A stretch of 64,000 bases of DNA from a virus, in IMG/VR virus record IMGVR_UViG_3300035686_000005, positions 1 through 64,000 of that record. One strand, written 5' to 3'. The DNA itself is not shown here. A report on this DNA, generated by a model with database tools, continues below.

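Follow-up and report, generated by a model that had tools for sequence, protein, structure and literature searches.

Exact copies of the 13-mer also occur in the DNA of unrelated bacteria (L146-L155, matched genome contigs), where they form isolated pairs, 16-40 bp apart, upstream of genes. In a Nocardioidaceae contig of 66% G+C the motif lies between a TTGACA box and the start codon, and in Pedobacter it adjoins a MarR-like gene. These pairs look like ordinary paired operators, and the 13-mer sequence is therefore a natural target for dimeric regulators. Among the syntenic relatives of the phage, which carry motif variants of their own, the slightly asymmetric TAAAGCGCACTTTA of L156 is oriented along transcription in all 12 of its 12 copies, while the YAYR spacers of its close relative L162 occur in mixed orientations. 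Separately, 98 unrelated viral loci were briefly surveyed, and two of them (L105 and L095, from IMG/VR) showed a dispersed 11-mer at about one copy per 1-1.3 kb; the words are ATAATGATAAT, which is Fur-box-like, and AAGAATTAGAA.

The relatives of the phage differ markedly in a second palindrome, the cyanobacterial HIP1 (GCGATCGC). Some of the loci L156, L162, L159, L163 and L160 are very rich in HIP1 or in the CGATCG at its core (47 copies in 21.8 kb of L156, 35 in L162), but it is nearly missing from L123, L125, L158 and the window itself, which holds two. The phage family evidently spans hosts both with and without HIP1.

A further difference concerns GATC, which is entirely absent from L123 and L125 (0 copies in 21.8 kb each, against about 80 expected), whereas the window holds a normal 244 copies and encodes a Dam-like methyltransferase. 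The window also has three HNH endonuclease genes, each of which is bracketed by copies of the motif; together with the methyltransferase gene they are:

559-978, HNH endonuclease gene, with a homologue of 264 aa in L123
1050-1868, D12 (Dam-like) methyltransferase gene, flanked by two of the three HNH genes of the window
1975-2427, HNH endonuclease gene
21614-22015, HNH endonuclease gene, the third in the window

D12 methylases are present in L158 and L159 as well. The absence of GATC on the one hand, and its normal count alongside a D12 methylase on the other, suggests that avoidance and methylation are two alternative answers to GATC-specific restriction in the hosts.

Toward the end of the window, positions 59920-61320 comprise 1.4 kb devoid of convincing open reading frames and include the sole motif copy with a central C (60332). 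Within it, TTACCCCCCCCTATTCCA(C)AAGTTGCATA occurs at least three times (near 60601, 60978 and 61008), and GGGGGGGGGTAAA blocks stand in inverted orientation around 60736 and 60917. At 59880-60090 there are three repeat units, in which a hairpin ending in GGGGCTTCTTTATTG is followed by promoter-like boxes. This stretch could represent a replication origin with iterons or, alternatively, a cluster of small transcription units. In another phage, L283 (IMGVR_UViG_3300041964_000029), an early promoter unit of about 50 bp (cttttctaaaacagTGGACGatTAAAGAGTCTTTAaccTATACTtggtgaagacaag) recurs in near-identical form at least 14 times between positions 11600 and 21590, roughly once per 500 bp and each time ahead of a small open reading frame. 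The L283 phage also has a ParB-like protein whose putative DNA-binding region is represented by three further short paralogues.

The two candidate readers of the motif in the window, encoded at 7531-8754 and 22487-23902, are distantly related paralogues. Their ParB-fold family is very rare, with 13 representatives among 1.84 billion proteins, and one of the two may read the 13-mer while the other reads a different site. For the product of 56352-57323, the PHROG search gave the family 'phosphoadenosine phosphosulfate reductase' (E 1.5e-22), but no Pfam model matched it. Phosphoadenosine phosphosulfate reductase-like proteins pair with ParB-like proteins in suspected DNA-modification systems, as in IbrA/IbrB-type pairs. 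In the window, the 56352-57323 gene and the ParB-like genes stand apart from one another.
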